This document shows, piece after piece, positions 5,238 through 44,850 of a DNA stretch of 64,000 nt; positions within the stretch are counted from its first letter, which is position 1, and every line of letters starts with the position of its first letter. This DNA is from an uncultured archaeon (GTDB lineage: Archaea; Thermoproteota; Bathyarchaeia; Bathyarchaeales; Bathycorpusculaceae). The position numbers and the translations under genes are program-made. The notes beneath the pieces were generated by a model. The model made no database searches, was not told the DNA's origin, and saw nothing but the letters and a program-made list of their open reading frames with translations. Location of the stretch: the NCBI GenBank assembly GCA_963782915.1, contig CAWALK010000011.1, positions 1-64,000 of the forward strand. The letters run 5' to 3'.

Positions 5238-6254
5238 GTGGTTTTGTTGGAGCAGCAAAAATTCGTTACCCCACTAAAAGTAGGCTTACTAGTCGTAGCC
5301 ATATCCTATTTTCTGTTCACCCTTCATGCAACCTTTACACTTGAATGGGTCGGGGAATGGGACCGCATTGCAGGCGGAGCTTTCAGAACTGCAATTCTTG
5401 TCGAGGACGTAATGGCATATGCCTGTCTGTTTTTCAGGCTTGCAGCCAGCATCATAGCCCTAGCAGCAGTCGTGTATTACTTTGCCAAGAAGAGCATTTC
5501 TAAGCCAGCGACCTACAAAATTTTAAGGGTAATTCTAATCTTCGAAGCAATTTATTGGCTTGGTCTAGCTGCAACCACATTCTTCACAGTTGAGGGCTTT
5601 GCAAGAGCTTTACCTATTCTACCGATAGCTTCCGTCTTAGACTCACTGGCGCTGGGTGTAATCCCAAGCGTTGTGGAAGCAATAATTCTACCCATTGCAC
5701 TATTCATTTTAGCTTTCAAATTAAGCCCCAACAAACCATTAAAGGGCGCAATAAAGTGGTCATTAATCACTGGAGCACTCTACATGCTCTCGTTCTGGTT
5801 AGTCTACACAAGCATCTGGGTAGGAGTTATACGTGCTAAGGGCATGGAATACTTTACCGCTCGTCCTGAAAACATAATTAGTTTTGCCTTAACTAGTGTC
5901 GGCTTGGTTGCCTTAGCCATCTACACAGCATACTCAACCAAAAAATTAAGCAGAGCAGAAACACTTCAAGAACTAAAATTGGGAACCGTGGGCGTCATTG
6001 TTTTAGCTCTGGGTACGTATTTTCTATGGAACTACATTAGTTGGGTTATTCTTGCGGGAGATCAATGGAATGATTGGTATGCGATGTTCCTTGGACACAA
6101 CTTGGACCTTTGGATGCTTTCATTACCACTAGTAGCATTGCCACTATTATTTTACCACAGAGAAAACCGACAGAGTACCAGACTCAAAAACAGCAACTCA
6201 GTGAAAACCCTAGAAGCAATCAATCTTTTTCTTCTTCTATTTCATTCGTGTTAG
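5238..6254 (+). CDS. Polytopic membrane protein of unknown function
   Basis: 338-aa ORF with about 8 hydrophobic segments. Confidence 0.75.
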   Translation: MVLLEQQKFVTPLKVGLLVVAISYFLFTLHATFTLEWVGEWDRIAGGAFRTAILVEDVMAYACLFFRLAASIIALAAVVYYFAKKSISKPATYKILRVILIFEAIYWLGLAATTFFTVEGFARALPILPIASVLDSLALGVIPSVVEAIILPIALFILAFKLSPNKPLKGAIKWSLITGALYMLSFWLVYTSIWVGVIRAKGMEYFTARPENIISFALTSVGLVALAIYTAYSTKKLSRAETLQELKLGTVGVIVLALGTYFLWNYISWVILAGDQWNDWYAMFLGHNLDLWMLSLPLVALPLLFYHRENRQSTRLKNSNSVKTLEAINLFLLLFHSC

Positions 6255-6402
6255 CGGCAGCATCAGACATCTTAGAGCCTTTCTTAAATTCGCCCTTAAC
6301 TCGCCCAAAAGCTCTTGCCAGTTGCGGTATCTTGGCGGGTCCCCAAAGAATAATCACGATAGCAACTACGCCTATGATTACCCATTCCCAACCTTGAAAC
6401 AT
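6220..6402 (-). CDS. tatA: Twin-arginine translocase TatA/E subunit
   Basis: GWEWVII...LWGPAKIPQLARAFGRVKGEFKKG, the typical TatA TM plus amphipathic helix. Confidence 0.9.
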   Translation of the reverse strand: MFQGWEWVIIGVVAIVIILWGPAKIPQLARAFGRVKGEFKKGSKMSDAAANTNEIEEEKD

Positions 6403-6596
6403 AAAATTGCCCTCTACCCAATTGGAACTGCTTAAAGGTTAAATCGATATGCTGGTACCACATAACAGTCACATAAAAACGCTAACAACACAAAAGTTCA
6501 CCTGTTTACTCTAAGGCTAATATTGTTACTAATAGCACGCTATCACATACGCTTAAAAGATTTCTTGAGTGTTAACCTCTTAGAAGGTACCCTTTT

Positions 6597-7475
6597 TTGG
6601 TTAATCGACGAGAATTTATCAAAATCGGTGTTGCTGGCGCAGTCGGTTTTGGCGTTGCAAGCGCGATTGAGATTCCGCTTTTAGAAAGCAATTACAACCC
6701 AAGGATTGCTGAGTTAGAGCAGCAGAGTGCAAATGCTCAAGCCCAAATCAATGAAACCCAAGGCTACTTAACCTTGAATTCGAACGAAAAACCAGAGGTT
6801 GAAGCATTAGCCGAAGCAATCATACCAAGCGACAGCAGCGGCCCAGGCGCCAAAGAAGCAGGCGTCATCTACTTCATAGATAACATGTTAGCGGGAAATT
6901 ATGGTAAAGGCGGAAACTATTTTCTTCAAGGCCCATTCGTCACCCCACAAACGGGTTCAGTTACAGTAATGGGTGCAGTTTACCCAAGCACAACAAAAAC
7001 CGCCATAACCTACTCAGGAGGCACCATCAAACCCAGATTGCAAGCGGGTACAGCCTATCAATACGCTTTTAACCCACGAGAGTTTTGGCGTCGCGGATTG
7101 GTGTTTCTGCAGCAGTACTGCACCGCGGCTAAGGGAGGCAAAAAATTTCAAGAACTCAGCTCAGCTGACCAAATTACGGTACTGCAGGAAATGTTTGATA
7201 ATAGCCCAGACAACACTGCCCTGCAATCCGCTTTTCAAGGCCCAACTGCCGCAGAATTCTACAACGAAATCTTTGACATGGTAGTTGCAGGCTACTGGGC
7301 AGACCCACTCTACGGCGGAAACGTAGGCAAAGTCGGCTGGTCACTTTTAGCATCTAACGGCGTTAATTCAGGTAGCGGACAAGGATACACACCAATACAG
7401 TTGGCACTAAGCACAACGCCCACTAAGCTTCCACCGCTTAGTCTAGGCGATTTACAACGGGGGGCAACGATGTAG
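6597..7475 (+). CDS. Gluconate 2-dehydrogenase subunit 3-like protein with Tat signal
   Basis: NRREFIK Tat motif; IIPSD..GPGAKEAGVIYFIDNML and GYWADPLYGGN..KVGW family motifs. Confidence 0.85.
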   Translation: MVNRREFIKIGVAGAVGFGVASAIEIPLLESNYNPRIAELEQQSANAQAQINETQGYLTLNSNEKPEVEALAEAIIPSDSSGPGAKEAGVIYFIDNMLAGNYGKGGNYFLQGPFVTPQTGSVTVMGAVYPSTTKTAITYSGGTIKPRLQAGTAYQYAFNPREFWRRGLVFLQQYCTAAKGGKKFQELSSADQITVLQEMFDNSPDNTALQSAFQGPTAAEFYNEIFDMVVAGYWADPLYGGNVGKVGWSLLASNGVNSGSGQGYTPIQLALSTTPTKLPPLSLGDLQRGATM

Positions 7476-9297
7476 ATGTCAGCTCCAATAACTCATCCAC
7501 AAACAGACGTTGTCGTTTTAGGTTTAGGCCACACAGGCGGACCTATCGCAGCAGAAATTACTGAGGCAGGCTACAATGTGGTTGGAATCGAGAAGGGACC
7601 CTTCTGGGATTATAATGTTGATTGGATTCCAACCAACATCCATGACGAATGGGCAATTACTGTAGAACGCAAATTTGATCATCCGCTCTACATTTCAACA
7701 TTTACTATACGAAATGATAGCACCCAGTTTGCGTTGCCCGTGCGAAGGTACACAAAAAACATCCAGTACCACGCATTAGGCCACGGCGTAGGCGGAGTAG
7801 GTACCCATTACGGCGGCGGATTAGGACGCTTTTCACCTTGGTCCTATCAACCCGTATCTTTTACGATTGCCAAATATGGTCAAGAAGGATACAACGCCAT
7901 CCTCGCCAACGTGAAAGGCGGCACACCTGACCTTGAAGATTGGCCAGTAACCTACGATGAAATGGTACCCTACTATAATCAGTGGGAACAAGCCCTCGGA
8001 GTCTCAGGTGACACACAAGACCCCTTCATACCAAACGCCAAATTCCCAACCCCGCCACATCCAGCAACACCATACGCCAACATCTACAAAGACGCCGTAA
8101 CAAGTTTAGGTTATCACCCTTTTCCATCAGTAAGCGGTTTAGTCAATGGCGCATACACTAACCAGTATGGCATAAACAGAAACGGCTGCATCTACTGCGG
8201 ATGGTGCGCTGGCTTATGCAACTACGTCTGCGAAGTCGGCGCTAAAAGCAGTTCTCATGTCACAACCGTTCCCGCGGCATTAGCGAACGGTGATAAATTT
8301 GATATGCGTCTTGATTCCTACGCATTTCGCATTGATACTGATAGTTCGGGTAAAGCTACGGGTGTACGCTACTATGATGCAACGGGCAAAGTGCATGTTC
8401 AACCAGCAAAAGTAGTATTCAACGGATTATGGGGCTTTAATCTCATACGAATGATGCTTCTCTCGGGCATGGGTGTCCCCTACAACGTAACCAACCACAC
8501 GGGTTCACTGGGCCGAGGCTTAACCAACGGATATTACCCAACCACCTCAAGCGCAAGCGTACAACTCTCGCTGGGCGCAAACACTTACTCATGCGGCAAC
8601 GGTTCAGGCGGCGGATACAACATAATGGACCTAAACGAAGTCAACCCAGATTACAAGCATCCAACAACATTCCTTGGAGGCGTAAGCTTATCATACGGCG
8701 GCTATTTAGGCGGAGGACCAGGCACATTCTCCAGTCAATTACCCAGCAGAACCAACCTCGGCGGCACATGGAAAGCAAGTCTAGTAAACCAGAAAATCCC
8801 CTCCAAACTCACCGCAACCCTCTCAGGCACAGGACCAAACCTGCCCCTTGTTGGAGCATTACTGTGATTTAGACCCACATTACACCGACATATATGGAGA
8901 TCCAGGCGCAAGAATCACACTAGACTGGGACGCAAACACCTACCGCGTATCAAACTACCTAATAAACGACTCAACCCTGATAACAGACATTTTAGGAAAA
9001 ATGGGCGATGCTTCAACCATAAAGAAAACCACAATCCCCGAGTTAGCTCAACATGTAGATTGGTGGGGACACCACATGAGAGGCGGCGCACGCACAGGCG
9101 CAAACCAAGCCACATCCGTCTTTAACAAGTGGATGCAATGCTGGACCAGCGAGAACCTGTTTGCAGCAAGTGAAATCTGCGACACATTCGGCGACAACAT
9201 CACGGCTGGAACACACGTTGCGGGCCCAATGGCGTATCTTGCAGCAGACGGCATCAAAAAATATCTTGCAAGCCCCGGTCCACTCGTTACAGGCTAA
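7476..9297 (+). CDS. GMC-family FAD oxidoreductase (gluconate 2-dehydrogenase flavoprotein-like), frameshift near 8848
   Basis: VVVLGLGHTGG Rossmann motif, GGVGTHYGG, DWPVTYDEM.PYY, Cys cluster CIYCGWCAGLCNYVCEVGAKSS; second frame supplies DLDP.YTD.YG.P and HHMRGGARTG C-terminus. Confidence 0.85.
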
Positions 9298-9303
9298 ACT
9301 CTG

Positions 9304-9879
9304 GTGCTATATTTGAGCGCTGAGGAACTTCTAAAACAGCTAACAGGCGTAATTTCTATTATTCCGCATGAATACGTCGATGCCCTACTAATTTTGCATG
9401 ATAAATGGGATAGCACTGGTGCAAATTGGATTGTGAATGGCGATTTGGCTATGTCACTAAGAACGGTGAATATTGAGCCGGATTGCATAGAAATCCTATG
9501 CACAAAACAGGAGGCACAGCAGCTTTTTGAAGCCTCCAAAGATTTTACGCCCCATCCAATTAGTTTTCAAACTAAAAAATTAGCCCAAGATGCAGTGTAT
9601 GAGGGCAACAAATACCCCGTTTACTCTAGAAGCCACTATTTCGAATTTGCCATAAAGGGCATTCCCGTGAAGGTTCAAGGCGACTTACAGTTCAAGGTGA
9701 ACGATTGGGAATGGGGTGATACCTTAGAGTTCCAACCGGAATACGTCAGTGTAGTTGGCAAAAAAACTGCCGTGACTCCATTGGCGATTCTGCATCAACT
9801 CTACAGCAGCTTAGGCTGGACAGAGAAAGCCCAGAGCATAGAGCAAGTGCTCCAGAAACGTTTGGTTAGACACCACTAA
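9304..9879 (+). CDS. Hypothetical protein, nucleotidyltransferase-like fold
   Basis: WIVNGDLAMSLRTVNIEPDCIEI resembles a degenerate GS...DxD NTase motif. Confidence 0.5.
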   Translation: MLYLSAEELLKQLTGVISIIPHEYVDALLILHDKWDSTGANWIVNGDLAMSLRTVNIEPDCIEILCTKQEAQQLFEASKDFTPHPISFQTKKLAQDAVYEGNKYPVYSRSHYFEFAIKGIPVKVQGDLQFKVNDWEWGDTLEFQPEYVSVVGKKTAVTPLAILHQLYSSLGWTEKAQSIEQVLQKRLVRHH

Positions 9880-9880
9880 G

Positions 9881-10753
9881 TTATAGGAACACTATTTTGT
9901 CTATTACCAACGCTATCATGAGGCACATGAGATAGGGCATTGAAGCAAGGAACGCTTTGAACCCATCAGCTTCAGTGCTTGAAATAAGCAACCCACGATT
10001 TTGAAACATAAATCCTGCGCCGGCCAACAAAGCAACAGACAAATAGATTGGACCAGCCAAAAACGCCAGCGGAAACACCGAGAAAACCACTGTTAATGCA
10101 TTTAGGGAAAACACGATCCGTGAAGCCTTTTGTATTCCGGCAGTTACAGGCAACATCGGAACGCCAACATGTGAGTATTCTTTGACTTTTTTGATTGCTA
10201 ATCCCCAAAGGTGACCAGGTGTCCAAAGAAAATCCAGCATCGCAACAAGAAACGGTAGTGCACTCAGAGTGTTTGCGGCGGCTGTCCAACCTGAGAGAGC
10301 AGCGAAACATCCCGCGAAGCCACCGATTACCACGTTCCAGGGGCTGCTGCGTTTGAGCCAAAGAGTGTATATTAACAGATAGAAAACGGCTCCTAGACCA
10401 ACCATTGCTGCGGTTAATGGGTTAAAGATGAAGTAGGAAAGTGCAAGGCTCAAAGCGATCAGGGTTGAACCAAAAACTGCAGCATTAATTGAGGTAATAT
10501 ATCCGGCGGGGATAACTCTCTTTGAGGTTCGCTCCATTTTTCTATCGATGTCTTGGTCATATACGCTGTTTAGGACGCCGCAGCCGCCTGCAGCCAAATA
10601 GCCGACAACCGCAAACAGGGCAAACTTGAAGAAATCAACAACTGGAAAAGCTGCAAGGACAAAACAGGTTAAACCCACAAGCAAATTCAGCAGTGTCACT
10701 TTGGGTTTTGTTAACTCGAAGTATCTACCCGCTTGCAATCGGATGTTTGTCAT
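9881..10753 (-). CDS. ctaB: Protoheme IX farnesyltransferase (heme O synthase)
   Basis: LTKPKV, NSVYDQDIDRKMERTSKR, YTLWLKR, LWTPGH, EY...GVPMLPV. Confidence 0.92.
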   Translation of the reverse strand: MTNIRLQAGRYFELTKPKVTLLNLLVGLTCFVLAAFPVVDFFKFALFAVVGYLAAGGCGVLNSVYDQDIDRKMERTSKRVIPAGYITSINAAVFGSTLIALSLALSYFIFNPLTAAMVGLGAVFYLLIYTLWLKRSSPWNVVIGGFAGCFAALSGWTAAANTLSALPFLVAMLDFLWTPGHLWGLAIKKVKEYSHVGVPMLPVTAGIQKASRIVFSLNALTVVFSVFPLAFLAGPIYLSVALLAGAGFMFQNRGLLISSTEADGFKAFLASMPYLMCLMIALVIDKIVFL

Positions 10754-10768
10754 TTTATCACTGTTATT

Positions 10769-11269
10769 TTATCCTGTGACGATTACGCTGCCCCACATGC
10801 CTGCTTCAGCATGGCCTGGAATGGGGCAAATGTAGTAGAAGGTTGAGCCGGCATAGTTTGGGGAAAAGATTACGGAGGCTTGCTGGCCTGGCGAGAGCGG
10901 GTTAGTTGAGGAAGCAACTTCAGCGTTGAAGAGTACAGCGGCGCCTGTCTGCGGCATTTCGGTTATTGCAAAAGCATGAGGCATTTTTCCTGCATTGATA
11001 ACTGTTAGGTTGACTACATCGGAGAGATGGAAATTGAGCGTTGGCCCCGGCGAAGTCAATTGATTGGCGGAGTATCCAAACCCCATTTTACCATTCGCTA
11101 ATTCGCCCGCATAGAGTACGATGTTTACGGTAGGAGTGCCGGTGTTTTGGTTTGTTGTTAGTGGTGGCTGGAGATGAAATACAAGCATTGAGATAGCGCC
11201 GACAGAGAAAGCCACGTATAGAACCACAATTAGAATTATGGAAAGGTAGGGTTTGTAGGATTTAGCCAT
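10769..11269 (-). CDS. Membrane-anchored type-1 blue copper protein (sulfocyanin/rusticyanin-like)
   Basis: N-terminal TM; PHAFAI and YYICPIPGHAEAGMWG provide the His, Cys, His, Met ligands. Confidence 0.88.
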   Translation of the reverse strand: MAKSYKPYLSIILIVVLYVAFSVGAISMLVFHLQPPLTTNQNTGTPTVNIVLYAGELANGKMGFGYSANQLTSPGPTLNFHLSDVVNLTVINAGKMPHAFAITEMPQTGAAVLFNAEVASSTNPLSPGQQASVIFSPNYAGSTFYYICPIPGHAEAGMWGSVIVTG

Positions 11270-11272
11270 TGC

Positions 11273-11548
11273 CTACCACATCCCTGTTGCCAGCGAATAA
11301 GCCATAGCGATCCCAAGCATACCTATGCCCACCACTGCAGCTAATGGCAACATAGCAAGTCTCCAAGATTCATAGCGCAGATGCTGATAGTACATGGCTA
11401 TAGTCACAGCTTTACCTGCAGCAATTAAAAGCAAAACCAAAACAATGCCAACAGCTACTGCACCCGCAAGAGTCCGTAGCAGAACCTCCACTACTGTTGC
11501 TGCCACAAGTCCAGCCCAAATTGCTATGTAGAGTTTTATTCCAGCCAA
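11273..11548 (-). CDS. Heme-copper oxidase subunit IV (CtaF/CyoD-like)
   Basis: Three TMs, KAVTIAMYYQHLRYE motif; TTG start at 11548 with GGTGA RBS. Confidence 0.75.
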   Translation of the reverse strand: MAGIKLYIAIWAGLVAATVVEVLLRTLAGAVAVGIVLVLLLIAAGKAVTIAMYYQHLRYESWRLAMLPLAAVVGIGMLGIAMAYSLATGMW

Positions 11549-11556
11549 ATTTTCAC

Positions 11557-12333
11557 CTACAACAAATAGAATAACGTGAAAAGAAACATCCAAACGATAT
11601 CCACAAAATGCCAATACAAACCCACATGCTCCACTCCGGCATGCTTCTCTTTAGTGAATTGTCCTTTGAACGCTCGAAACATCAAGTAACCAATCGCAAC
11701 TAAACCTACTGCAACGTGCATCGCATGCACGCCTGTAAGTGTGTAATATGTGGAGCCGGGTAAGCCGCTGCTTATAGTGAAGCCGCTGGCAATTTCTGAG
11801 GGCCACTCGAAGCCAAGCTTAATGACCAGAAAAGTTAAGCCTAAAGCAAACGTAGTGACCAACGCAGCTTTGGCAGCCCCAGAATTGCCGGCTCTTATGA
11901 AGAAAAGAGCCAAAATCATCGCTAAACTACTTGTCAAAAGAATAATCGTGTTACCCAATCCCAAACCCAAACTGTGAACTTGCAGAGCATCAGGCCAAAA
12001 AGCACTACTAGCACGCACATACCCATAAGAAATCAACAACCCGCCGAAAAGCAGTATCTCTGAGGAGAGAAAAACCCATACGCCGATCTTCTCTTTACTG
12101 AGACCCTCAAGCGGCCACTTCTCAGTTAACCGCTCTGTTAAGTCGGAAAACTTTTCTTTAGAATTATCAGAGAATGCCTTGAAGAGCCCAACTACTAGAA
12201 TTACTAAACCCGCTATGGCAATGGGAATAAAAATGGAAATACCCAGCATGAGCAGGGAAACGCCAAGAGCGATGACTATGGGCACAAACGTTGATTTGCC
12301 CTCTTTAGATCCCGCCACATCGTCCTGGGTCAT
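11557..12333 (-). CDS. coxC: Heme-copper oxidase subunit III
   Basis: GVWVFLSSEILLFG, NTIILLTSS, YYTLTGVHAMHV, GLYWHFVDIVWMFLF. Confidence 0.92.
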   Translation of the reverse strand: MTQDDVAGSKEGKSTFVPIVIALGVSLLMLGISIFIPIAIAGLVILVVGLFKAFSDNSKEKFSDLTERLTEKWPLEGLSKEKIGVWVFLSSEILLFGGLLISYGYVRASSAFWPDALQVHSLGLGLGNTIILLTSSLAMILALFFIRAGNSGAAKAALVTTFALGLTFLVIKLGFEWPSEIASGFTISSGLPGSTYYTLTGVHAMHVAVGLVAIGYLMFRAFKGQFTKEKHAGVEHVGLYWHFVDIVWMFLFTLFYLL

Positions 12334-13922
12334 TTTTGTTCCTCCGCTATTGATTCTTGTGGTCCATGTTGTTCTTGCTTCTCAGCGGCTGCAACCGTTT
12401 CCGGTATGTGAGCGGGGTTTCCACTGTAGTTACCTGTCCATTCTAGTTCCTTAGAGCCCCATGGATTTGGTGTTGAAGGCTCATTTTTTATGTAAGAATA
12501 AACCAAGTTTAGAACAGCAAGTGCGGCTGCTGCTCCGAAAAGATAAGCCCCGATTGTCGCAGTAAAGTTGATCCCTGCTAAACCGCTGGTTATGGAGTAC
12601 GTTGAGATTCTTCGAGGCATATCAATTAGGAAGAAGTATGGGAAAAAGAGCCAATTGAAGCCAATTACCGATGCGATAAAGCTGATGATGCCGATTTTTT
12701 CGTTGTATTTTCGGCCGGTGATTTTTGGCCACCAATAGTATAATCCTGCTAGTAGACCAAACAGGGTTGTTCCAGCCATCACATAGTGAAAGTGACCCAC
12801 AATCCAGTAAGTTCCCCTAAAAGTGTAATCCAAAACAGGAAAAGCTTGCAAGACACCTGTGACGCCGCCTAAGGTTACAGTGAAGATTGCAAGCAAACAG
12901 AACAGGTAGGGAGTCAGGATTGTTATGCTGCTCTTGCGAAGTGAAATAACCAGTTGGATAACTAGACCTTCGAAAGGAATGGATATCGCCAGCGTGGTAA
13001 TCGAAAACGTTTGAAGCAAATCGTAGTTTACGCCAGTTGTGAACATATGGTGTACCCAAACTCCGACGCTCAGCAAGGTTACCAACGCCATTTCGATGAG
13101 GAAAATTGTTCGGGCAAATAAGGGTCGCTTTGTAAAAGTCATGAAAACTTCAGCGATAATACCAAGCACTGGAAGCACCAAGATGTAAACCTCGGGATGC
13201 CCAAAGAACCAGAACAGTTGATCCCACAATATACTTCCCCCCTGAGTTGAACTAAAGAAAACCGTTCCGAGCAACCTATCGGATGCCAACAAGAACATGC
13301 CAGCAGCGAGGGGTGGAAACGCAAAGAGCATTAAAAAATTGGTCATAAGCATGGACCACGAAAAAATAGGCAACCTCCGCCATGTGACACCTTGAGTGCG
13401 AGTGCGAATTATAGTTGTGATAAAGTTAACTGAAGACATTGTTACAGAGATAGCAAGCATTGCAATTGCGAATACGGCAAGAGTAGCGCCTAGTTGAGGT
13501 GTAAATTGGATAGTGTTAAGGGGGGCATAGAATGTCCAGCCTGTGTTGGGGCCGCCGCCGGGAAGAAAAACTGAACTCAGTAAAAGAATTCCACTGAAGG
13601 CAAAAATGAAAAAGCTCAGAGCATTTAGCCGTGGAAACGCCATGTCTTTTGCGCCGATTTGTAGAGGAACCATATAGTTTGCTACGCCCACAGCGAGAGG
13701 AGACAAAACCCAAAGAATCATTAAAAGACCATGCAGCGTGACGGTTTGTTCATAAGCAAAGGGGTTAAGCAATGTATTACCTGGCATTGCTAACTGTGTT
13801 CTCATCAAGAGACCGAATGAGCCGGCTGTAGCCAAAAAAGCGATGGCGGTTACGATGTAGAGTATGCCTATGCGTTTGTGGTTGGTTGTTGAGAGCCAGT
13901 CTTTGAGGGAATATTTGTCTAT
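12330..13922 (-). CDS. coxA: Heme-copper oxidase subunit I, A1-type signature; true start upstream of the ORF-track start (ATA at 13922)
   Basis: WLSTTNHKRIGILY upstream of 13835 in frame; TLHG, KDMAFPRLN, GWTFYAPL, WFFGHPEVY, WVHHMFT, GHFHYV, MPRR. Confidence 0.95.
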   Translation of the reverse strand: MDKYSLKDWLSTTNHKRIGILYIVTAIAFLATAGSFGLLMRTQLAMPGNTLLNPFAYEQTVTLHGLLMILWVLSPLAVGVANYMVPLQIGAKDMAFPRLNALSFFIFAFSGILLLSSVFLPGGGPNTGWTFYAPLNTIQFTPQLGATLAVFAIAMLAISVTMSSVNFITTIIRTRTQGVTWRRLPIFSWSMLMTNFLMLFAFPPLAAGMFLLASDRLLGTVFFSSTQGGSILWDQLFWFFGHPEVYILVLPVLGIIAEVFMTFTKRPLFARTIFLIEMALVTLLSVGVWVHHMFTTGVNYDLLQTFSITTLAISIPFEGLVIQLVISLRKSSITILTPYLFCLLAIFTVTLGGVTGVLQAFPVLDYTFRGTYWIVGHFHYVMAGTTLFGLLAGLYYWWPKITGRKYNEKIGIISFIASVIGFNWLFFPYFFLIDMPRRISTYSITSGLAGINFTATIGAYLFGAAAALAVLNLVYSYIKNEPSTPNPWGSKELEWTGNYSGNPAHIPETVAAAEKQEQHGPQESIAEEQK

Positions 13923-13926
13923 CTAC

Positions 13927-14583
13927 TTAGCCTCCTGAAGTCGCTGTTTGGTTTGATAGGAATTGGTTGTAGGCGGTTTGGTTCATTACATTCATTGTTG
14001 CGATCATGTAGGTGTGGCCGACGCCGCAGAGTTCTTTGCAGAGTATCCTGTATGATACCTGTGAGTTGCCGTCTAGCTGAGGCGTTGATATCCAGATGGC
14101 GTTGTTTCGTCCGGGTATGGCGTCGATGCTTACGCGGAAGTCTGGGAGGTAAAAGTTATGCATGACATCGGTGCTTGTCACGTTGAAGAGGATTGTTGTG
14201 TTTTCGGGGAGGTTGAGGATGCCTGTTGAGTTTCTTCCGTTTGGATAAACGAAAGTGAAGCCCCATTGGTAAGCTATGACTTGGATTTCTGTACTGGGTG
14301 TTGTGGGTAAGAAACGGGCGTTTGGGGTAAGTGTGAATGATAGTACACTCATGGTAAAGAGAATCGCGATAGAGATTGAAGCAAAAATTACTGCATCTCT
14401 TGCACGACTTACATGCAGACCCCTTTCAGGGATAAATCTTGTTTTGCCCTTCCGTTCCCGATAAACTATAGTAAAAATAATCATAGCACCCACAGTGATA
14501 GCAACCGCTATTACCGCTGTGTAACCGGCAACATTGAAGAAACGCGTCCAGTCGATAGCTGTAGGAGGAATTGGTGGAGCCAT
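13927..14583 (-). CDS. coxB: Heme-copper oxidase subunit II with CuA centre
   Basis: Two TMs, AYQWGF, DVMHNF, DAIPG, CKELCGVGHTYM CuA motif; no CxxCH heme c motif. Confidence 0.93.
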   Translation of the reverse strand: MAPPIPPTAIDWTRFFNVAGYTAVIAVAITVGAMIIFTIVYRERKGKTRFIPERGLHVSRARDAVIFASISIAILFTMSVLSFTLTPNARFLPTTPSTEIQVIAYQWGFTFVYPNGRNSTGILNLPENTTILFNVTSTDVMHNFYLPDFRVSIDAIPGRNNAIWISTPQLDGNSQVSYRILCKELCGVGHTYMIATMNVMNQTAYNQFLSNQTATSGG

Positions 14584-14779
14584 TCTACCATCAACAAAAA
14601 ATTTTAAGTAATTGGGGGTAAAATTACTGTCGAACCTACTTGCAATTACTAACAGAGAATACTAATTAGCGGCGGTTTAAACAATTGTGGCTAGGCTGTA
14701 GCAATCACAAATAACGTATGACTACCTAACCAACCACTTTGCTCAATACTAAAAAATAAAAAGCCTAAAAAAGAAAAAA

Positions 14780-15250
14780 TTAATTGACGGTTACTGTTCC
14801 CCACATTCCTAAACTAACGTGGCCGTCAACTTGGCAGATGTAGTAGTAGCTTCCTGCGTTGCCTACCGTGAAAGTTACTGATTGAGTGCTCCCCGCTGCG
14901 ACTGGGCTGCTTGCTGAACCTATTTGGGCTCCGCTGAACCCTAGGTTTGTGCTGCCATCGACTTTGTCGGTTGTGATTGCCCAGTTATGCGACATCGTAC
15001 CTACGTTGTGGAGGGTTACTGTGACTGTTTGGCCGTGTGTTAGAACCATTTGGGGTCCAGGCGATCCGATGTTGCTGCTGCTTGATCCGAAGCCGTATTC
15101 ACCCGCGTAGATGTCGATGTTTGTTCCAGTGAGCGTGCCTCCTCCTCCACCTCCGCCGCCTGGATTCATAAATACAAAGACTAGAACGCCTGCTACTATT
15201 ATGGCGATAACTACTACCGCTATTATGACATAGATTGACCTGTTAGCCAT
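14780..15250 (-). CDS. Second membrane-anchored type-1 blue copper protein
   Basis: TM, poly-Gly linker, SHNWAI, YYICQVDGHVSLGMWG; paralogue of 10769..11269. Confidence 0.88.
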   Translation of the reverse strand: MANRSIYVIIAVVVIAIIVAGVLVFVFMNPGGGGGGGGTLTGTNIDIYAGEYGFGSSSSNIGSPGPQMVLTHGQTVTVTLHNVGTMSHNWAITTDKVDGSTNLGFSGAQIGSASSPVAAGSTQSVTFTVGNAGSYYYICQVDGHVSLGMWGTVTVN

Positions 15251-15511
15251 ATTTTTATCTCCAAAAAACGTTAACTATCAATTAGGCGGCTTTTTGTTTA
15301 AAGTTGTGTTGGTTATGCTTGCACAGTCACAACTTCAACGTTTAGGTAAGGAGTGCTGAACTGGCACCACATGCAAGCATCTATAGAATAGACAGAATCA
15401 AAATGATATGTACAAAGGAAATAGAAGCAGAAAATTTGAAAAACACAGTAAAAAGCGGACTAAAAGAGCGCATGGTTATGTCGAGCGGCTAGACTACCAA
15501 ACCAGGGATAT

Positions 15512-15955
15512 TTAGCTGGGCATTGTATAATAAACGACTGCACCTATAATTATGCTTATTAACCAAAGCACAACTGTGGCTCGCATATATTTCCTGGTAG
15601 ACTTCGGTAAGTCATTAAAAAGGTACATTACAGTTAAAATCGCAGCCGGAGCACCAACAATAGCGTGAATAATCTGCAGGATTGAAAATCCGGACAAGAA
15701 ATCAACGCCGTCCGTGGTATAATAAATGTACATAGATGGAAACATTACTAAAAAAATAGATGCTAAACTAAGAATTATAGCGCCGCTCATAGTCCACCGG
15801 TGAAGATGAAAAAACTCTCTCGTTTTCATTCTACCATAAATTATTCCCAAGATGCCTAAACCAAGAGCAACGAACATTATTGCGATAGATTCTTGCACAA
15901 GAAACGAGTTCATATAGTTAGAAATACCCATATTCATGCTCATAAAAAAGCCCAA
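15512..15955 (-). CDS. DUF420/CtaM-like membrane protein
   Basis: Four TMs with HRWTM, IIHAIVG and LWLISIIIGAVVY pattern; position next to the oxidase operon. Confidence 0.6.
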   Translation of the reverse strand: MGFFMSMNMGISNYMNSFLVQESIAIMFVALGLGILGIIYGRMKTREFFHLHRWTMSGAIILSLASIFLVMFPSMYIYYTTDGVDFLSGFSILQIIHAIVGAPAAILTVMYLFNDLPKSTRKYMRATVVLWLISIIIGAVVYYTMPS

Positions 15956-16060: not shown

Positions 16061-17617
16061 TTATTTTTTATGGAACTTGGGAATATCCTTAGACAGTAAC
16101 AACTCATCAATCCTAAGCATCAACGACGACACCTCAGAAGCCCGTCTAAGCACAGAACGTTTAACTATAAGCGGTTCCAAACAAACCGAGTCGGCGCAGC
16201 TATCTTCGCAGACACCAACGCCTAAGTCACCCTCGGCATGTCGCCTTCTCAATTCAATAAGTGTGTCAGTTGCGTTTAAGCCATAATTCTCCGCCAGACA
16301 CCGTGGAATATCCATCAATGCCCTCGCATACGCATCAATAACTACTTGCTCGCGGTTGTCAAAGGATTTAGCATAACCATGCAGTTCTTGTGCGAGCTGC
16401 GCTTCGGCTGCTCCACCGCCCTCAAGAACCATGTTTTCTTCAGCGAGGTTTTTAAGGGTTATAAAGCTGTTTTTAATGGCAACCTCCAGTTCGTCAATGG
16501 CTTGGGGGATGTTGCCTCTTAGCAGAAAAGTTGCGCCTCTACAACCACTCAGGGTTATGGTGTTTTCAAGTTCTATTTTGTCCGTAGAGAGTTCCTCTGC
16601 GGCACCGATATCTTCGCCTGTGAGTTCCTTCAAGTTTCCTACTATTTTAGCACCTGTGGCTTGTGCGACGGCTTGAAGATCCGCTTGGTCTACGCGTTCA
16701 AGCGCAAAAACTCCGTTTGTAATAAGCAGGGTTTTCTGGTATTCTTCGATGGGTTGCTGGCAAAGCACTACGTTAACTCCTAAAGCCGTCAGTTTATGTA
16801 TGAAATCGGTTTTGAGTTTGACTTCAACGTCTCTATACTGCTGAATTTGGTCAGCACTGTTAATGTTTAATCTTATTGGCGTTGGCCCTTCACCCCTCAT
16901 TTTAAGCTCTAAGCGGTCAAGCCCCAGTCGCTCGCCTGTGAGAACTATCCGCAGATTCTTCAGGGTATCAGGCATATTGGAATGTGCTTTGAACTTCTTG
17001 AGGACAATACCATGAATTAAGATTGACTCGTCTATGATGCCGCCGTTTCTGCGCAGGAAACGGATGTTTTCAATATTAAATCTGCCATCGGAGAACGCCA
17101 GAGGGTATGAATCTTGGATCATGGAGCGGATTTTTGGGGTTAAGAGGTTCCTTTTGCAGTCAACCGTATCCAAAATATCGACGTTGGGGGGTATGGGAGT
17201 TGCTTGTTTTTCGAGGATTTCCAGTGCCTTCTCCGTTGCTAGATGGTAGCCATGGATTATGGTGTTGGCATGGATTTTCATGTCCATGAGGGCGTCGGCT
17301 TGCTTTAGCAGTGCCGAGATGAAAACAGCGAATGTTGCTGTGCCGTCGCCTGCTTCTTGGCGCTGCATCTTCGCTGATTCCGCGATAATAACTGCTGGTG
17401 GATACTGAATTGCTAATTCATCCAGGACTGCTACGGCGTCTTTGGTGACTTTTATGACTTTTTCAGGTCCCTTATTGTATGTTACGAGTTTGTAGGCGCC
17501 TTTTGGTCCAAGGGTGCTTCGGATTTTGTCTGCTGCATAGACGGCTGAGTGGAGGTTTTGCCGCCAAGCGTCTTTTCCGTTTAGGCGTTGATAATGGGGT
17601 GAAATGATTTGTTCCAT
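16061..17617 (-). CDS. Divergent group II chaperonin (thermosome/TCP-1 family)
   Basis: STLGPKG, GDGTAT, GGGAAE, LAENYGLN, LRIDELL. Confidence 0.88.
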   Translation of the reverse strand: MEQIISPHYQRLNGKDAWRQNLHSAVYAADKIRSTLGPKGAYKLVTYNKGPEKVIKVTKDAVAVLDELAIQYPPAVIIAESAKMQRQEAGDGTATFAVFISALLKQADALMDMKIHANTIIHGYHLATEKALEILEKQATPIPPNVDILDTVDCKRNLLTPKIRSMIQDSYPLAFSDGRFNIENIRFLRRNGGIIDESILIHGIVLKKFKAHSNMPDTLKNLRIVLTGERLGLDRLELKMRGEGPTPIRLNINSADQIQQYRDVEVKLKTDFIHKLTALGVNVVLCQQPIEEYQKTLLITNGVFALERVDQADLQAVAQATGAKIVGNLKELTGEDIGAAEELSTDKIELENTITLSGCRGATFLLRGNIPQAIDELEVAIKNSFITLKNLAEENMVLEGGGAAEAQLAQELHGYAKSFDNREQVVIDAYARALMDIPRCLAENYGLNATDTLIELRRRHAEGDLGVGVCEDSCADSVCLEPLIVKRSVLRRASEVSSLMLRIDELLLSKDIPKFHKK

Positions 17618-17743
17618 GAAGATCCTTCAAAAGGGGAAGCTTATCTGTGCATACTTGCTTGGGGTTTTGGGGTTCATAAAAGTAAGTGGTTGCACTATGC
17701 CACCCACAGACAACCCGTCTAGCAGAAGTGTAAAGTCGCTTGG

Positions 17744-18190
17744 TTATATGCCCTCGGTTTCTATCCAACTCAAACTCTTAAGATCCACAACCCGCTTATC
17801 AATCAACTTAGAGAGCTCTTCACGAAGTTGTTCCCCAGAAATATTGGTTGCTATAAAACATAACTTGTTAGCGAAATCTCTATCACCCAAAACACCCTCT
17901 ATCCAGCGCTGGAAATCGCCCCGGTAATAATGATAGACAACCGATTCGACATCAACAATTTTTAGTTTAGCCGCAAAATCTTCCAGACTGGTCGCTGTTA
18001 AACCAATGTAGATGCCGTGTTCAGTCATAAAATGGAAACCCTGCTCCGCAGGTACAACACGCAGAATAGTTGAAGGGTCTTTTTCCTGTTCGTTCGAGTT
18101 TTCTGGTTGTTGATTCAACAAAATAAGCCGCTCCATCAATACTGAATTCGCCGTTGGATATAGCCGCTTGTGGTAGTTATGAAATAACAA
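17744..18190 (-). CDS. DUF5752-like hypothetical protein (start probably downstream of 18190)
   Basis: GFHF...G.YIGLTATSLEDF...SV.YHYYRGDFQRWI..VLGD pattern. Confidence 0.65.
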   Translation of the reverse strand: MLFHNYHKRLYPTANSVLMERLILLNQQPENSNEQEKDPSTILRVVPAEQGFHFMTEHGIYIGLTATSLEDFAAKLKIVDVESVVYHYYRGDFQRWIEGVLGDRDFANKLCFIATNISGEQLREELSKLIDKRVVDLKSLSWIETEGI

Positions 18191-18208
18191 AAAGTCGTTA
18201 CAGCATAT

Positions 18209-18679
18209 TTATTGGCGCTGTTTTAGTTGGGCAGCTATTGTTTTTCCGAATTCAATTGCCTTTGATAGTTCGCCGTCTACTAAGGGGCCATTCACGCCTT
18301 TCACCCTAATTGAAAGACCGGGCGCTATCTGGGTTAGATTGGGCAGCTGTTCTTTTATGTGCTTCTCAAGTTTCTTCATTGCTTTCTGATAATATCTTTG
18401 TCTTTGAAAATAAGTATCAAATGCGGCAAACCATTTTGCACTAAGAGAAGCATCTGTGAGTGAATTAACAAATCGAGTTATGGTTCTCGAGGGTTTGCCC
18501 ATATGGTTCGGCGCACCTATAATCAAAACATCATAACTGGCTAAGTCTTGGGGGGAAACCTCTTTAGCGTATCCGATTGCTACTTCGATGTCATCGGTTT
18601 GCTTTAGGCCGTCTAAGATGTTTTCTGCGACCTGTTTGGTGTTGCCGTATTTTGAGTCATAGACTACAAAGGCTTTCAT
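18209..18679 (-). CDS. Flavodoxin-family protein
   Basis: VVYDSKYGNTKQVAE and IIGAPNH motifs; ATG at 18679. Confidence 0.88.
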   Translation of the reverse strand: MKAFVVYDSKYGNTKQVAENILDGLKQTDDIEVAIGYAKEVSPQDLASYDVLIIGAPNHMGKPSRTITRFVNSLTDASLSAKWFAAFDTYFQRQRYYQKAMKKLEKHIKEQLPNLTQIAPGLSIRVKGVNGPLVDGELSKAIEFGKTIAAQLKQRQ

Positions 18680-18696
18680 TGAGGGCACCGGTTTGG

Positions 18697-19053
18697 TTAT
18701 GCTTGTTTGTCGAGTGTTGGGGGTTTTCGTCGTGCATCCCAAGCATGATGCAACGCCAAGTCAGGATGGTAAATCAGAAGTCGCGGACCGGAATAACGCA
18801 TGACCTTTCTGACCTGCAATTTCATGTCTGGTTTATAGCAGTGGATTGTGCATTTGCCGCAGGTTGTTTTTTTGTCTTGGAAGGGACATTTGGCTAGGCG
18901 CATTAGGGCGTATTCTTGGAATTGTTGGCATTCGGGGCATAATTCGCCGTGTGTGTCGTGGTGGCCTTTGCAGTAGACGTGAGTCATGATTTCGATGGTT
19001 TGTCTTTCGCGTTTCATTCTTTTGTGTTCGGGGTTTGGCGGTTGTGGTTTCAT
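18697..19053 (-). CDS. YgbA / nitrous oxide-stimulated promoter family Cys-rich protein
   Basis: REKQTI-like start, YCKGHH, LCPEC, RL.KCPF, CGKCTIHCYKP, VMRYSGPRLL. Confidence 0.85.
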   Translation of the reverse strand: MKPQPPNPEHKRMKRERQTIEIMTHVYCKGHHDTHGELCPECQQFQEYALMRLAKCPFQDKKTTCGKCTIHCYKPDMKLQVRKVMRYSGPRLLIYHPDLALHHAWDARRKPPTLDKQA

Positions 19054-21826: not shown

Positions 21827-22510
21827 GTGGATAGGGCATTTAGAAAAACTGCCGTAGCAGCAATTGCATCAGTGTTTATTCTATTTCTAATGTTATCGAC
21901 AGTTCAAGCCCAACCAACGCAAACAGTAACCACATTTACTCCATCAGACAAATTCAGTATTCCAGGCCAAAACGCCAACATTAACTTCGCATTCAACGGC
22001 TCCTACACCAAAGCAACACTCGAAAACGGCACATGGACCTTCAAAGGGTTAGTGCTCAACAACACCCAAGCCCTGCAAGCCTATGGATTTAGCGATATTC
22101 AAGGTCTGGGAAACCTTAAAATCTCCGCAGAAAACTCAAACGTCACAGTTCTAGCGCTTGTGAGTTTAAACTTTACTTTCCCAGTAGACTTGCTAACTTT
22201 TACCGTTGAGGGCTGGGGCACACAAACAGTTAACTTAGGCTTGAATTCGTCCTTGCCCACAAATGTGGCTGAATGGAGTGTGCTCACTGATGAGGGAGCT
22301 ACTTTTTTGGCTGAGGGGTCGGGCTGGAATCTGCTGCCGGATAATTCGGTGCGGATTAATGGGGGTATGGGTAATGTGACGGTGATGCATTATTCTATTA
22401 CTGACCCTGCGATGGCGAATTTGTCGTTTTTTATGCAGCACTACGTGGTTATTTTTATGGGTGTGGGGTTGGCGGTTACGGTTGCTGTGGCAGCGCTGAT
22501 AAGCTGTTAG
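21827..22510 (+). CDS. Secreted/membrane-anchored hypothetical protein
   Basis: Signal peptide, many N-x-S/T sites, C-terminal TM. Confidence 0.7.
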   Translation: MDRAFRKTAVAAIASVFILFLMLSTVQAQPTQTVTTFTPSDKFSIPGQNANINFAFNGSYTKATLENGTWTFKGLVLNNTQALQAYGFSDIQGLGNLKISAENSNVTVLALVSLNFTFPVDLLTFTVEGWGTQTVNLGLNSSLPTNVAEWSVLTDEGATFLAEGSGWNLLPDNSVRINGGMGNVTVMHYSITDPAMANLSFFMQHYVVIFMGVGLAVTVAVAALISC

Positions 22511-31417: not shown

Positions 31418-31490
31418 AGCCCGGTGGTGTAGTGGTCAAGCATAGAGGGCTTTGGACCCCCTGACGAGAGTTCGAATCTCTCCCGGGCTA
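31418..31490 (+). tRNA. tRNA-Gln(TTG), intronless, CCA not encoded
   Basis: AGCCCGG/CCGGGCT acceptor stem, anticodon loop CT-TTG-GA, T-arm GAGAG-TTCGAAT-CTCTC. Confidence 0.93.
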
Positions 31491-31803
31491 CTTTTAATAT
31501 TTCATTTGGTTGTTGCTTTTTGATCCCTTTATTTGTGTGGCAACTAACAACTTTCCAACACGTGCTTGACTGAAAGCTGTGTTTTGGTGTACCACGGGTT
31601 TTAGCTGTTGGAGACTGGTTGCGGATGACTTTTGCAAGCAGCACTGGTTCGGCTATATCGTATGCGATTATGGGACCTACCTACCTCGGAGCACCTACCC
31701 CTTTTCCTCCACAAGAACAGCAAATAACGGCTATTTTTTTGCGGTTATTTCGGGGTTTGGTTGCAGGTTAGTTGAGGAGCAACTTCAAGCAGACCAGCTA
31801 AAA

Positions 31804-32020
31804 TCTTTTGCTCTGAGGGCCCTATCCCCCTTATTTATAGGCTAAACAACTGCTAGCTAAATCTTGGCGCATCCATGCGTTCATTGGGCAGCAGTAATCC
31901 AGCGGCTACATTATATAGGGGCAATGCTTCTTTTCTATGCAGTTATTTTGAGACGTATCTTTAATTTCGGCGTGTGTGCGTCTGTTGCTCTGCCAAGGAC
32001 CCCCCTCCCCTATATATAGA
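31804..32020 (+). repeat. Dispersed bipartite non-coding element, copy 2
   Basis: CCTATCCCCCTTATTTATAGGCTAAACA (31821) ... TCTGTTGCTCTGCCAAGGACCCCCCTCCCCTATATATAGA (31981-32020). Confidence 0.75.
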
Positions 32021-32421
32021 TCGGCAAATGCAGGCTTGCCGATGGTTGTCTCTTTAGGAATGTGCAGAATTCAAGAGGAGTTATGTGCATACGTATTATA
32101 GAGCAATTGTTTCTTGAGCGTTTGCGGCAATCATAATCGAGTTTATGGCGGAGTCTTTGGTAGTGAATATTGAAAACAGAGCTGCCGGGATTGCGTCAAC
32201 TTGCTGTCTTCTCAAAGAGTTGAGGCTAACCTACTTAAGCCATTAATCCGTATGTTTATGCAATTAGTGGTAATAACCTATTCATAACATTGTGGCAATA
32301 AACTATGAGCAGTGAAGAGCAAAAAAGCCACAACCAGACCCAAAGAAGCCAGCCAAGTAAAGCGGTAAAGGTGCAATAAAAATTTGATCCGTAATAAACA
32401 ACTTCGAAAGGAGAATTAGCC

Positions 32422-33506: not shown

Positions 33507-33620
33507 CCGTATTTTGAATAGAAGTAAAACATCCAAAACAAGTCTACCCTCTCTATTGGGAAAACCATACCTAAAACTTTTTGAAGGGTCAAGTTGTTCA
33601 TTTATAAAGGATCAATCTTG

Positions 33621-33791
33621 ATGGATAAAGATAAAATTAAAGATGAACTTTGCACGTGTGGCCATTTGAAAAGTGAGCATTCGTATTTTTTAGATAGAGT
33701 ATGTAATAAACCTAAATGTGAATGTTACAAGTTTGTTTTGAAAAAGGAAGAACAAAAACCTGATTTTTCAAAACTCGTGTCCAAAAACTAA
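33621..33791 (+). CDS. Small Cys/His zinc-finger-like protein
   Basis: CTCGHLKSEH...CNKPKCECYKF. Confidence 0.55.
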   Translation: MDKDKIKDELCTCGHLKSEHSYFLDRVCNKPKCECYKFVLKKEEQKPDFSKLVSKN

Positions 33792-33826
33792 AAAAATCTA
33801 AATGATGATGCTAAGAGGTTCAATAA

Positions 33827-34186
33827 ATGGTAAAAATCAATCTGTTGACCTATTTGACATTCAATTTGAACATGCTTGTTGACAAAGGAAAAAGTATGAC
33901 GTTAACAGAGACCAGACAATTGTGTCAAGAAAAAACAATCCTTCATGAGTTGCAAGAGCGATTTCCTTTTGGGGAAACACGACTTGACTTATCTTTATTG
34001 AAACTGCAGCCTGATGACGAAGCAGAAATTGAAAACGTTTTATATAATATGGCTACGTCATTAAAAGACAGCGAAATGCTTGTGGGAAACAACGGTTTAT
34101 GTCTGTTAATTGCATACGCTCAGGAGCAGATTCAAAGAGAAGCAAGGAAATTCGAAGAGAAAAGCAGCGAAAAAACCATTACTTGA
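33827..34186 (+). CDS. Hypothetical protein
   Basis: 119-aa ORF with protein-like composition. Confidence 0.6.
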   Translation: MVKINLLTYLTFNLNMLVDKGKSMTLTETRQLCQEKTILHELQERFPFGETRLDLSLLKLQPDDEAEIENVLYNMATSLKDSEMLVGNNGLCLLIAYAQEQIQREARKFEEKSSEKTIT

Positions 34187-44849: not shown

Positions 44850-44850
44850 C

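Follow-up and report, generated by a model that had tools for sequence, protein, structure and literature searches.

We analyzed a gene cluster at positions 6220-15955 of a 64-kb stretch of archaeal DNA (contig CAWALK010000011.1, positions 1 to 64,000; hereafter, the window). An earlier interpretation, made from the letters and the open reading frames (ORFs) of the stretch and referred to below as the sequence-only reading, had singled out this cluster as a candidate aerobic respiratory module in which copper proteins take the place of cytochrome c. Inspection of the ORF list together with Pfam and NCBIfam searches showed that the cluster consists of two convergent gene strings (Table 1). The plus-strand string, which is divergent from tatA, encodes the small subunit of a dehydrogenase, a flavoprotein of the GMC family and a protein of 191 amino acids (aa). 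The minus-strand string encodes, in order, a DUF420-like protein, the cupredoxin CupB, CoxII, CoxI, CoxIII, CoxIV, a second cupredoxin, CupA, and the haem O synthase CtaB. From the small-subunit gene through coxII, the intergenic gaps measure -58 to 15 bases, and the two gaps around the CupB gene measure 196 and 261 bases. All genes that had been listed in the sequence-only reading were recovered by the ORF calls, Pfam and NCBIfam where that reading had placed them; the conserved 191-aa ORF that follows the GMC gene had not been on its list.

Table 1. Genes of the cluster, followed by frame-split genes elsewhere in the window (positions are those of the window)
Feature	Position	Strand	Evidence and remarks
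TatA, 60 aa	6220..6402	-	PF02416, 42.8 bits (cut-off 21), E 3e-11
Dehydrogenase small (beta/gamma) subunit, 292 aa, gluconate 2-dehydrogenase subunit 3 family	6597..7475	+	PF13618, 88.8 bits (cut-off 23.4), E 5e-25
GMC flavoprotein, N-terminal 463 codons (FAD-binding fold, Cys cluster)	7476..8867	+	PF00732, 27.5 bits (cut-off 23)
GMC flavoprotein, C-terminal 149 codons, +1 frame (substrate-binding/catalytic part)	8848..9297	+	PF05199, 18.2, under the cut-off of 24.6
Nucleotidyltransferase-fold protein (predicted), 191 aa	9304..9879	+	AlphaFold2 model and Foldseek; last gene of the dehydrogenase operon
CtaB, haem O synthase	9881..10753	-	TIGR01473, 254.6 bits (cut-off 210.3); PF01040, E 1e-51; last gene of the oxidase operon
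CupA, membrane-anchored cupredoxin	10769..11269	-	PF06525, 33.8 bits; PF00127, 26.7 bits
CoxIV-like small subunit	11273..11614	-	PF03626, 36.1 bits (cut-off 28.9)
CoxIII	11557..12333	-	PF00510, E 1e-27
CoxI, A-type haem-copper oxidase catalytic subunit	12330..13922	-	PF00115, 406.8 bits
CoxII, CuA centre, without fused cytochrome c domain	13927..14583	-	PF00116, 48.3 bits
CupB, membrane-anchored type-1 cupredoxin, Gly-rich linker	14780..15250	-	PF00127, 43.7 bits
DUF420-like four-helix membrane protein	15512..15955	-	PF04238, 22.8, under the cut-off of 30.5; first gene of the oxidase string
ADP-forming acetyl-CoA synthetase, split	52451-54247 / 51385-52563	-
ABC ATPase, split	54904-55197 / 55109-55714	+
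Oxoacid:ferredoxin oxidoreductase subunit, split over three frames	57759-59965	+
Periplasmic binding protein, split	60562-60936 / 60908-61999	+

The sequence-only reading had proposed to look for the neighbourhood of GMC and cox genes in other archaea, and this synteny is indeed kept, albeit in rearranged form. Of the six closest loci fetched by CoxI similarity (L001-L006), five (L001-L005; CoxI 64-74% identical) have the block formed by the small-subunit, GMC and 191-aa genes no more than 10 kb away from the cox genes. Three arrangements were observed. In the window and in L004, the block converges on ctaB, as it does in L003, where the CupB gene lies between the two; in L001 and L005, a thermosome gene separates the block from ctaB; and in L002, the block is located upstream of coxII.

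The small subunit begins with MVNRREFIK, a twin-arginine motif, and the pattern RRxFIK is kept in all six Bathyarchaeial small subunits compared. No solved structure was matched by its sequence. It has 664 relatives at E<=1e-5, of which the 120 listed carry PF13618 only and span 215-349 aa. The GMC protein carries no signal peptide, its N-terminus opening directly with the fold that binds flavin adenine dinucleotide (FAD). In the Bathyarchaeial proteins, it contains a cluster of five cysteines (C-x2-C-x2-C-x3-C-x3-C); across 13 aligned GMC sequences, with 4-5 cysteines each, C238, C244 and C252 (L003 numbering) are invariant, as are G16, G18, H534 and N561. Among solved structures, its closest relatives are the large subunit of fructose dehydrogenase (8xcn/7w2j), with E-values of 4e-11 to 1e-10, and FAD-glucose dehydrogenase (6a2u), with an E-value of 5e-10. 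When aligned with 7w2j and 6a2u, the Cys cluster coincides with their Fe-S site. The Tat-signal small subunit and the signal-less GMC protein with a Cys cluster, both noted in the sequence-only reading, are thus borne out by the motif and by the PF13618 and PF00732 scores. Judged by its sequence, which combines a GMC fold, a Cys cluster and a PF13618 partner with a signal for twin-arginine translocation (Tat), the pair is a member of the class of Tat-exported GMC dehydrogenases that includes FAD-glucose dehydrogenase, fructose dehydrogenase and acetol dehydrogenase (AceDH). The Cys cluster is predicted to bind a 3Fe-4S or 4Fe-4S centre.

Some enzymes of this class have a multihaem cytochrome c as a third subunit. 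Because no CxxCH protein lies next to the pair, either in the window or in L001-L005, we filed the pair with the two-subunit form. The sequence-only reading had stated that bacterial enzymes of this kind need a multihaem cytochrome c subunit. This was too strong: a two-subunit AceDH (GmcA/GmcB) composed of a GMC protein and a Tat-signal partner has been characterized from Methylacidiphilum fumariolicum SolV and reduces a soluble cytochrome c (bioRxiv 10.64898/2026.06.11.731722), so that the class does not require the multihaem subunit. The GMC protein has 294 matches with at least 50% identity; those with names among the 120 listed belong to Bathyarchaeia, Thaumarchaeota or Nitrososphaerota. 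None of these 120 matches is a fusion with a cupredoxin or cytochrome domain, and the shorter entries look like fragments.

The GMC protein could, alternatively, be an O2-reducing oxidase that produces extracellular hydrogen peroxide, for example for attack on plant polymers, and stands apart from respiration. Among GMC enzymes, oxidases are common, and the record titles of the relatives point to soil and peat. However, the three invariant cysteines align to a site that, in the solved dehydrogenases, relays electrons to a protein partner; the partnership with a Tat-signal small subunit is that of the dehydrogenase class, AceDH included; and the pair is embedded in oxidase operons. We consider a peroxide-producing enzyme to be very improbable.

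The remaining genes of the dehydrogenase string and its surroundings bear on export and on the substrate. TatA falls below the cut-off of TIGR01411 (42.3 against 53.9). A tatA gene stands beside the dehydrogenase block in L001, L002, L003 and L005 as well, with tatC adjoining there; no TatC was found in the window. Both in the window and in all five loci with the block, the 191-aa gene comes next after the GMC gene; another archaeal relative, L019, has it at 13509-14102, at ~300 bp from the gene of a cupredoxin and without a GMC gene close by. The 191-aa protein has no Pfam match. Its Atlas clusters score 0.98; in the two best of these, PF10706 is present on 12-29% of the members. The AlphaFold2 model (predicted local distance difference test, 64) has as its top Foldseek match the putative nucleotidyltransferase TM1012 (2fcl; E 1e-9, TMq 0.53). 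The model thus suggests a nucleotidyltransferase fold, the usual acidic residues of which are partly kept (E63 is invariant, the preceding Asp is not). Genes for major facilitator superfamily transporters, a TrmB-type regulator and a short-chain dehydrogenase are found near some relatives and hint weakly at sugars.

On the oxidase side, the histidine motifs LHG, GHPEVY, HHMF and GHFHY are readable in the translation of CoxI. A query that lacked the first 29 residues scored 501.4 against the equivalog TIGR02891, under the cut-off of 670.75. By its motifs, which include the six conserved His ligands and the Tyr/Glu motif GHPEVY, and by its family matches, CoxI is classed as subunit I of an A-type haem-copper oxidase. 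In CoxII, the CuA ligands H142, C182, E184, C186, H190 and M193, together with the entry tryptophan W107, are invariant in all 10 aligned sequences. The score against TIGR02866 (124.3) lies under the cut-off of 147.7. Oxidases with a CuA centre are fed by a small carrier external to the membrane and not by quinol. With its CuA ligands invariant, this oxidase is expected to behave likewise. No match to a haem A synthase (COX15/CtaA) was found in the window, and for this reason we do not call the oxidase aa3. CoxI and CoxIII are fused into a single ORF of ~800 aa in L001 (9719-12250), in L019 (9890-12301) and in the additional archaeal locus L007 (9893-12283), and are separate in the window and in L002-L006. 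A DUF420-like gene, presumably CtaM-like, is present near the cox genes in L001, L002, L003, L004 and L006. Of six family members scanned, five match positions 4-128 of the 130 positions of PF04238, the best with 30.6 bits, just above the cut-off that the window protein misses. CoxIII also gives a weak DUF420 match (25.8), and part of the DUF420 score may reflect a generic likeness among membrane helices.

Both window cupredoxins have an N-terminal hydrophobic anchor and the H/C/H/M ligand set, but they differ in how well the copper site is conserved. In CupB, every one of the six aligned sequences retains the full set; the L005 copy, a fragment, is not among them. Among solved structures, CupB comes closest to auracyanin A (2aan, E 7e-9), followed by rusticyanin (E 1e-7), and both of these serve as carriers in respiration. 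The position of the CupB gene varies, and it adjoins the dehydrogenase block in L002 and L003. In CupA, the best solved relative of which is rusticyanin (E 6e-9), all four ligands are present in only 4 of 8 sequences (the window, L003, L001 and L019); all four are replaced in L002, the Cys and a His in L006, and the second His in L004 and L005. In the window and in L001-L006, coxIV and ctaB flank the CupA gene; in L019, it follows coxIV on the opposite strand. CupA is thus more likely to be an oxidase-associated subunit with a dispensable copper site, and we propose CupB as the carrier. Of the two type-1 copper proteins postulated in the sequence-only reading, both have complete ligand sets in the window, but in the case of CupA this does not extend to the family. 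In L006, the CupB-like protein (14293-14853) has an extra C-terminal hydrophobic segment besides its hydrophobic N-terminus, and L002 encodes, beyond the thermosome gene, an additional 336-aa protein with two cupredoxin domains (16615-17625).

The oxidase subunits II-I-III-IV with a CuA centre and the lack of a CxxCH cytochrome c gene in the cluster, both claimed in the sequence-only reading, held on inspection. The cluster contains no CxxCH motif, and only two occur in window frames of at least 60 aa, one in a hydrogenase small-subunit-like protein (PF01058) and the other in a 61-codon frame overlapping an ATP-binding cassette (ABC) ATPase gene. No cytochrome c-like CxxCH protein was found in the window or in eight related archaeal loci. 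The sole CxxCH motif in these eight loci belongs to a 102-aa ORF beside the small-subunit gene of L004; this was considered as a cytochrome c and rejected, as it has no signal peptide and carries a second CxxC pair.

CoxI similarity also fetched 72 other loci, 25 of which have full flanks; at 3 of the 72, all three of them bacterial, homologous pairs with ~30% identity were detected in or beside caa3 operons. In L036 (Gaiella), the gene order is coxII-c, coxI, coxIII, a lipoprotein monohaem cytochrome c, small subunit, GMC and ctaG. In L037 (Dehalococcoidia), it is coxII-c, coxI, coxIII, a further gene, ctaG, small subunit and GMC, and in L046 (Actinomycetota), the pair is divergent from coxII-c. 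The archaeal CoxII proteins lack a cytochrome c domain, whereas those of L036, L037 and L046 have one (with a C-terminal CVYCH in L037 and L046). The cytochrome c of L036 (~12650-13027), encoded directly upstream of the small-subunit gene, contains a lipobox (LGGCGG) and CGSCH and is membrane-tethered, like CupB. The bacterial small subunits have a Cys soon after the signal peptide. These features fit lipid tethering in single-membrane bacteria. In the CoxI tree, from which L005 was omitted (best segment <400 aa), the three bacterial loci fall into different sub-branches and are not sisters of the archaeal clade. We considered these GMC-linked bacterial cox operons as a source of the archaeal island and rejected this origin, the archaeal clade (window, L001-L004, L006, L007 and L019) standing apart from all 72 other sequences. 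Chance is a poor explanation for a pair that sits between coxIII and ctaG. The dehydrogenase block near cox in five of six close loci and the homologous pair at bacterial caa3 operons appear to be new; literature searches brought up no earlier description of a link between GMC dehydrogenases and terminal oxidases.

We read the region as the aerobic respiration island of a soil-type Bathyarchaeon in which the GMC dehydrogenase is wired through its Fe-S centre and CupB to CuA and O2, and assign to this reading, which takes gene order as its basis, a probability of roughly 0.5. From the gene content, the motifs and the conserved linkage, we infer the following chain. The GMC protein would take up FAD and an Fe-S cluster, held by the three invariant cysteines, and fold in the cytoplasm; it would then cross the membrane by hitch-hiking on the small subunit with its Tat signal, TatA being encoded alongside. 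An alcohol or sugar-type substrate would be oxidized outside the membrane, and the electrons would pass from FAD to the Fe-S centre, to the copper of the tethered CupB, to CuA, and on to the haems and CuB, where O2 would be reduced. The proton-motive force would come from the oxidase alone, and the cupredoxin pool may also be fed by complexes encoded elsewhere. The electron path drawn in the sequence-only reading is plausible in its outline, with gene order and analogy as its basis.

A broader reading, which we put forward tentatively and hold to be rather less probable, extends the scheme beyond the archaea. Soil Bathyarchaeia and, in parallel, some Actinomycetota and Chloroflexota might run a hitherto unrecognized minimal chain that leads from a Tat-exported two-subunit GMC dehydrogenase on the outside of the membrane to a tethered one-electron carrier and on directly to CuA of a proton-pumping oxidase, with no quinone or bc-type complex. 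In the archaea, a cupredoxin would act as this carrier; in the bacteria, the role would fall to a lipoprotein cytochrome c or to the cytochrome c domain of the caa3 oxidase. The compact archaeal island, which includes Tat export genes and haem O synthase, could have made an anaerobic lineage an oxygen respirer.

Several observations weigh against the proposed wiring. L006 carries cox and cupredoxin genes with no GMC gene within 10 kb, and yet it is nested among GMC-bearing relatives in the CoxI tree; L007 and L019 likewise combine cox and cupredoxin genes in the absence of a GMC gene. Because such combinations occur, the cupredoxins are independent of the dehydrogenase. As the close loci are of common descent, part of the linkage may be due to inheritance rather than selection. 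None of the 120 listed of the 664 small-subunit relatives is fused to a cupredoxin or cytochrome domain, and the bacterial cases, 3 of 72, are raw counts that come without a genome-wide background rate. The wiring itself is argued from gene order and analogy; modelling of a complex of GMC (L003), residues 44-308 of the small subunit and residues 66-180 of CupB, with alignments, gave a score of 0.00 in two runs without controls and speaks neither for nor against binding. Finally, the GMC gene of the window is frameshifted (see below).

Alternatively, the two gene strings could be neighbours that are not wired together. The oxidase and the cupredoxins would then be fed by a quinol-oxidizing complex encoded elsewhere, the dehydrogenase would use another acceptor, and the genes would have been acquired together, or inherited, as an oxygen-related island. 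The loci in which cox and cupredoxin genes do without GMC, and a synteny that related loci can simply inherit, are in line with this possibility, as is the island-like grouping of Tat genes, dehydrogenase, cox and ctaB; moreover, the window covers 64 kb of the genome. However, three rearrangements have left the block no farther than 10 kb from cox, the homologous pair recurs in bacterial caa3 operons from three CoxI sub-branches, once between coxIII and ctaG, and no gene for an alternative acceptor travels with the block in the six archaeal cases. We regard unwired neighbours as a possible but doubtful explanation.

The frameshift in the window calls for separate consideration. By tblastn, three intact relatives align to frame 3 of the GMC gene up to 8852 and to frame 1 from 8839/8845, and DNA alignment with L002, L003 and L004 showed that the window has an additional base, located in CTGCCCCTTG near 8846-8849. 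In L001-L005, GMC is a single ORF of 605-618 aa. The insertion, which breaks the gene into 463 and 149 codons, raises the possibility that the dehydrogenase gene is a real pseudogene here, and that the module is decaying, with the oxidase part alone in use. However, at least four more genes of the window are frame-split, one Pfam domain running on from one frame into the next (Table 1), and both GMC halves are 76-88% identical to the intact relatives, with no further stops. Because the other genes are split likewise, an assembly indel error is the likelier cause of the GMC split, and a genuine pseudogene appears unlikely. Such a pseudogene would be compatible with either reading of the wiring, and its probability is not to be added to theirs. 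The CoxI gene, by contrast, is not frameshifted, a possibility that was considered and ruled out: it runs in one frame from 13922 to 12336, as compared with relatives of 521-532 aa, and has ATA as the start codon (13922-13920) in place of the ATG found there in L002, L003 and L004. The 501-aa ORF starting from TTG 13835 in the ORF list is too short. For the CoxIV-like subunit, relatives align from 11554, so that the true start is probably near this position.

The description of the source as a probable Bathyarchaeote in the sequence-only reading agrees with our data. In a genome scan with CoxI as the query, five of the six closest loci (64-74% identity) are titled Bathyarchaeia or Bathyarchaeota. 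The sixth, L002, is titled Candidatus Sulfotelmatobacter sp., but its 81.8-kb contig carries an archaeal thermosome, 62% identical to that of the window, together with the full Bathyarchaeial cluster, and the bacterial label of this record is probably a binning error. Between the window and L002-L004, the thermosome is 61-62% identical. TFB of the window has matches at 92-97% identity; only 3 of the 120 matches listed bear names, two of them Bathyarchaeia and one Zixibacteria, the latter again probably a binning error. TFB, SUI1 and the thermosome are the archaeal markers in the window, and no rRNA gene was found in its 64 kb. The guanine-plus-cytosine (GC) content of the cluster, 0.43-0.48, is within the range of the window (0.39-0.51), with no break at the cluster. 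A chimeric contig is unlikely, because relatives carry the same gene set on contigs of up to 1.19 Mb (L004).

An aerobic Bathyarchaeon as such is not new, having been in print since 2023. In Hou et al. 2023 (PMC10321748), the soil genus Houtuousia is described as encoding cytochrome c oxidases and as having a (micro)aerobic lifestyle, and a 2025 review (PMC12694404) restates the finding of aerobic soil Bathyarchaeia. In the text of Qi et al. 2021 (PMC8407382), the words oxidase, aerobic and copper do not occur. The sequence-only reading had held that its proposal would fall if the contig came from a known aerobic lineage. This may be the case, given that aerobic soil Bathyarchaeia have been published.

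Other parts of the window contain genes of different kinds. Adjoining the oxidase string, positions 16061-19053 encode a thermosome, a DUF5752 protein, a flavodoxin and a YgbA_NO family protein. At a distance of ~25 kb from the oxidase string (40537-45342) lie the genes of a NiFe hydrogenase with NuoE/F/G-like subunits, so that one contig holds both oxygen-sensitive and oxygen-using enzymes. On the minus strand, positions 46047-51161 encode a NosD-like beta-helix protein, a DUF4331 protein and a 928-aa protein with PQQ_2 and Filamin repeats, a probable set of secreted or surface genes. Directly after a tRNA-Gln gene (31418-31491), ~9 kb (31418-40540) have a lower GC content (0.39, compared with ~0.45). 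None of the eight ORFs of this stretch has a Pfam family, and a PHROG scan gave one weak match among the eight; the stretch may be an integrated element or comprise lineage-specific surface genes. A PHROG scan of the ORFs at 21827-22510 and 5238-6254 gave no match.

If the linkage between dehydrogenase and oxidase is functional, it names a concrete electron donor for a Bathyarchaeial oxidase and defines a chain of three proteins: dehydrogenase, cupredoxin and oxidase. External oxidation of an alcohol or sugar-type compound would then drive archaeal respiration without quinones or cytochromes c, and the embedding of a GMC pair in bacterial caa3 operons suggests that this principle occurs more widely. 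Direct-electron-transfer biosensors make use of dehydrogenases of this class, and a natural copper-protein partner would be of practical interest here.

Among known systems, Houtuousia resembles the source of the window in being a lineage of soil Bathyarchaeia with an encoded cytochrome c oxidase and an inferred (micro)aerobic lifestyle. By contrast, cupredoxins, the GMC dehydrogenase and the Tat linkage go unmentioned in the accessible text of PMC10321748, which describes the genus as lacking the pyruvate:ferredoxin oxidoreductase (POR) complex, whereas the window encodes a POR-family oxidoreductase at 57.7-60.5 kb.

The closest characterized enzyme, set beside the window pair by its description rather than by sequence identity, is AceDH. 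AceDH shares with the pair a signal-less GMC protein combined with a Tat-signal small subunit, a surface Cys cluster, the lack of a dedicated cytochrome subunit and the use of a small one-electron carrier. Its CxxCxxCxxxC cluster is reported to have a potential of +275 mV and to lie near the surface, ~11 A from the flavin (bioRxiv 10.64898/2026.06.11.731722). The described carrier of AceDH is a cytochrome c (cGJ), whereas the window has no cytochrome c nearby and a cupredoxin is proposed instead. AceDH is further described as binding an extra copper via Asp188 (alpha) and Met144 (beta), while the GMC proteins considered here have Val or Ile after the first Cys, and the Bathyarchaeial GMC has a fifth Cys, unlike AceDH.

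In the three-subunit FAD-glucose and fructose dehydrogenases, a membrane-bound multihaem cytochrome c subunit passes electrons to ubiquinone. The enzymes from Burkholderia cepacia (FAD-glucose dehydrogenase, 6a2u) and Gluconobacter (fructose dehydrogenase, 7w2j/8xcn) are the best solved relatives of the GMC protein, with the Cys cluster aligned to their 3Fe-4S site. Like the archaeal pair, the three-subunit enzymes use a small subunit of the same Pfam family, described as a Tat hitch-hiker (PMC6719666). The archaeal pair differs from them in that no multihaem cytochrome c gene accompanies it.

On the oxidase side, the rus operon of Acidithiobacillus ferrooxidans has the order cyc2-cyc1-acoP-coxBACD-rus. 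There, as in the window, the cox genes, of the aa3 type, are flanked by those of two cupredoxins, the oxidase-associated AcoP and the carrier rusticyanin, and of all solved structures, rusticyanin matches CupA best and comes second for CupB. The input of the rus system is Fe(II), via an outer-membrane cytochrome, and Cyc1 lies between rusticyanin and the oxidase, whereas in the window a flavoprotein input is proposed and no cytochrome c was seen. Cupredoxins also stand in for cytochrome c as donors of CuA oxidases in the case of the plastocyanin-like proteins of ammonia oxidizers, sulfocyanin SoxE, halocyanin and the auracyanin of Chloroflexus. These archaeal and Chloroflexus carriers are, like CupA and CupB, anchored type-1 cupredoxins; auracyanin A is the best solved relative of CupB, and PF06525, the family of SoxE, matches CupA. 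They are, however, reduced by a quinol-oxidizing complex, whereas in the window it is a periplasmic-type dehydrogenase that is genetically linked. Compared with all these systems, the cluster apparently represents a periplasmic-type dehydrogenase that feeds a terminal oxidase via a small carrier, with copper replacing haem c.

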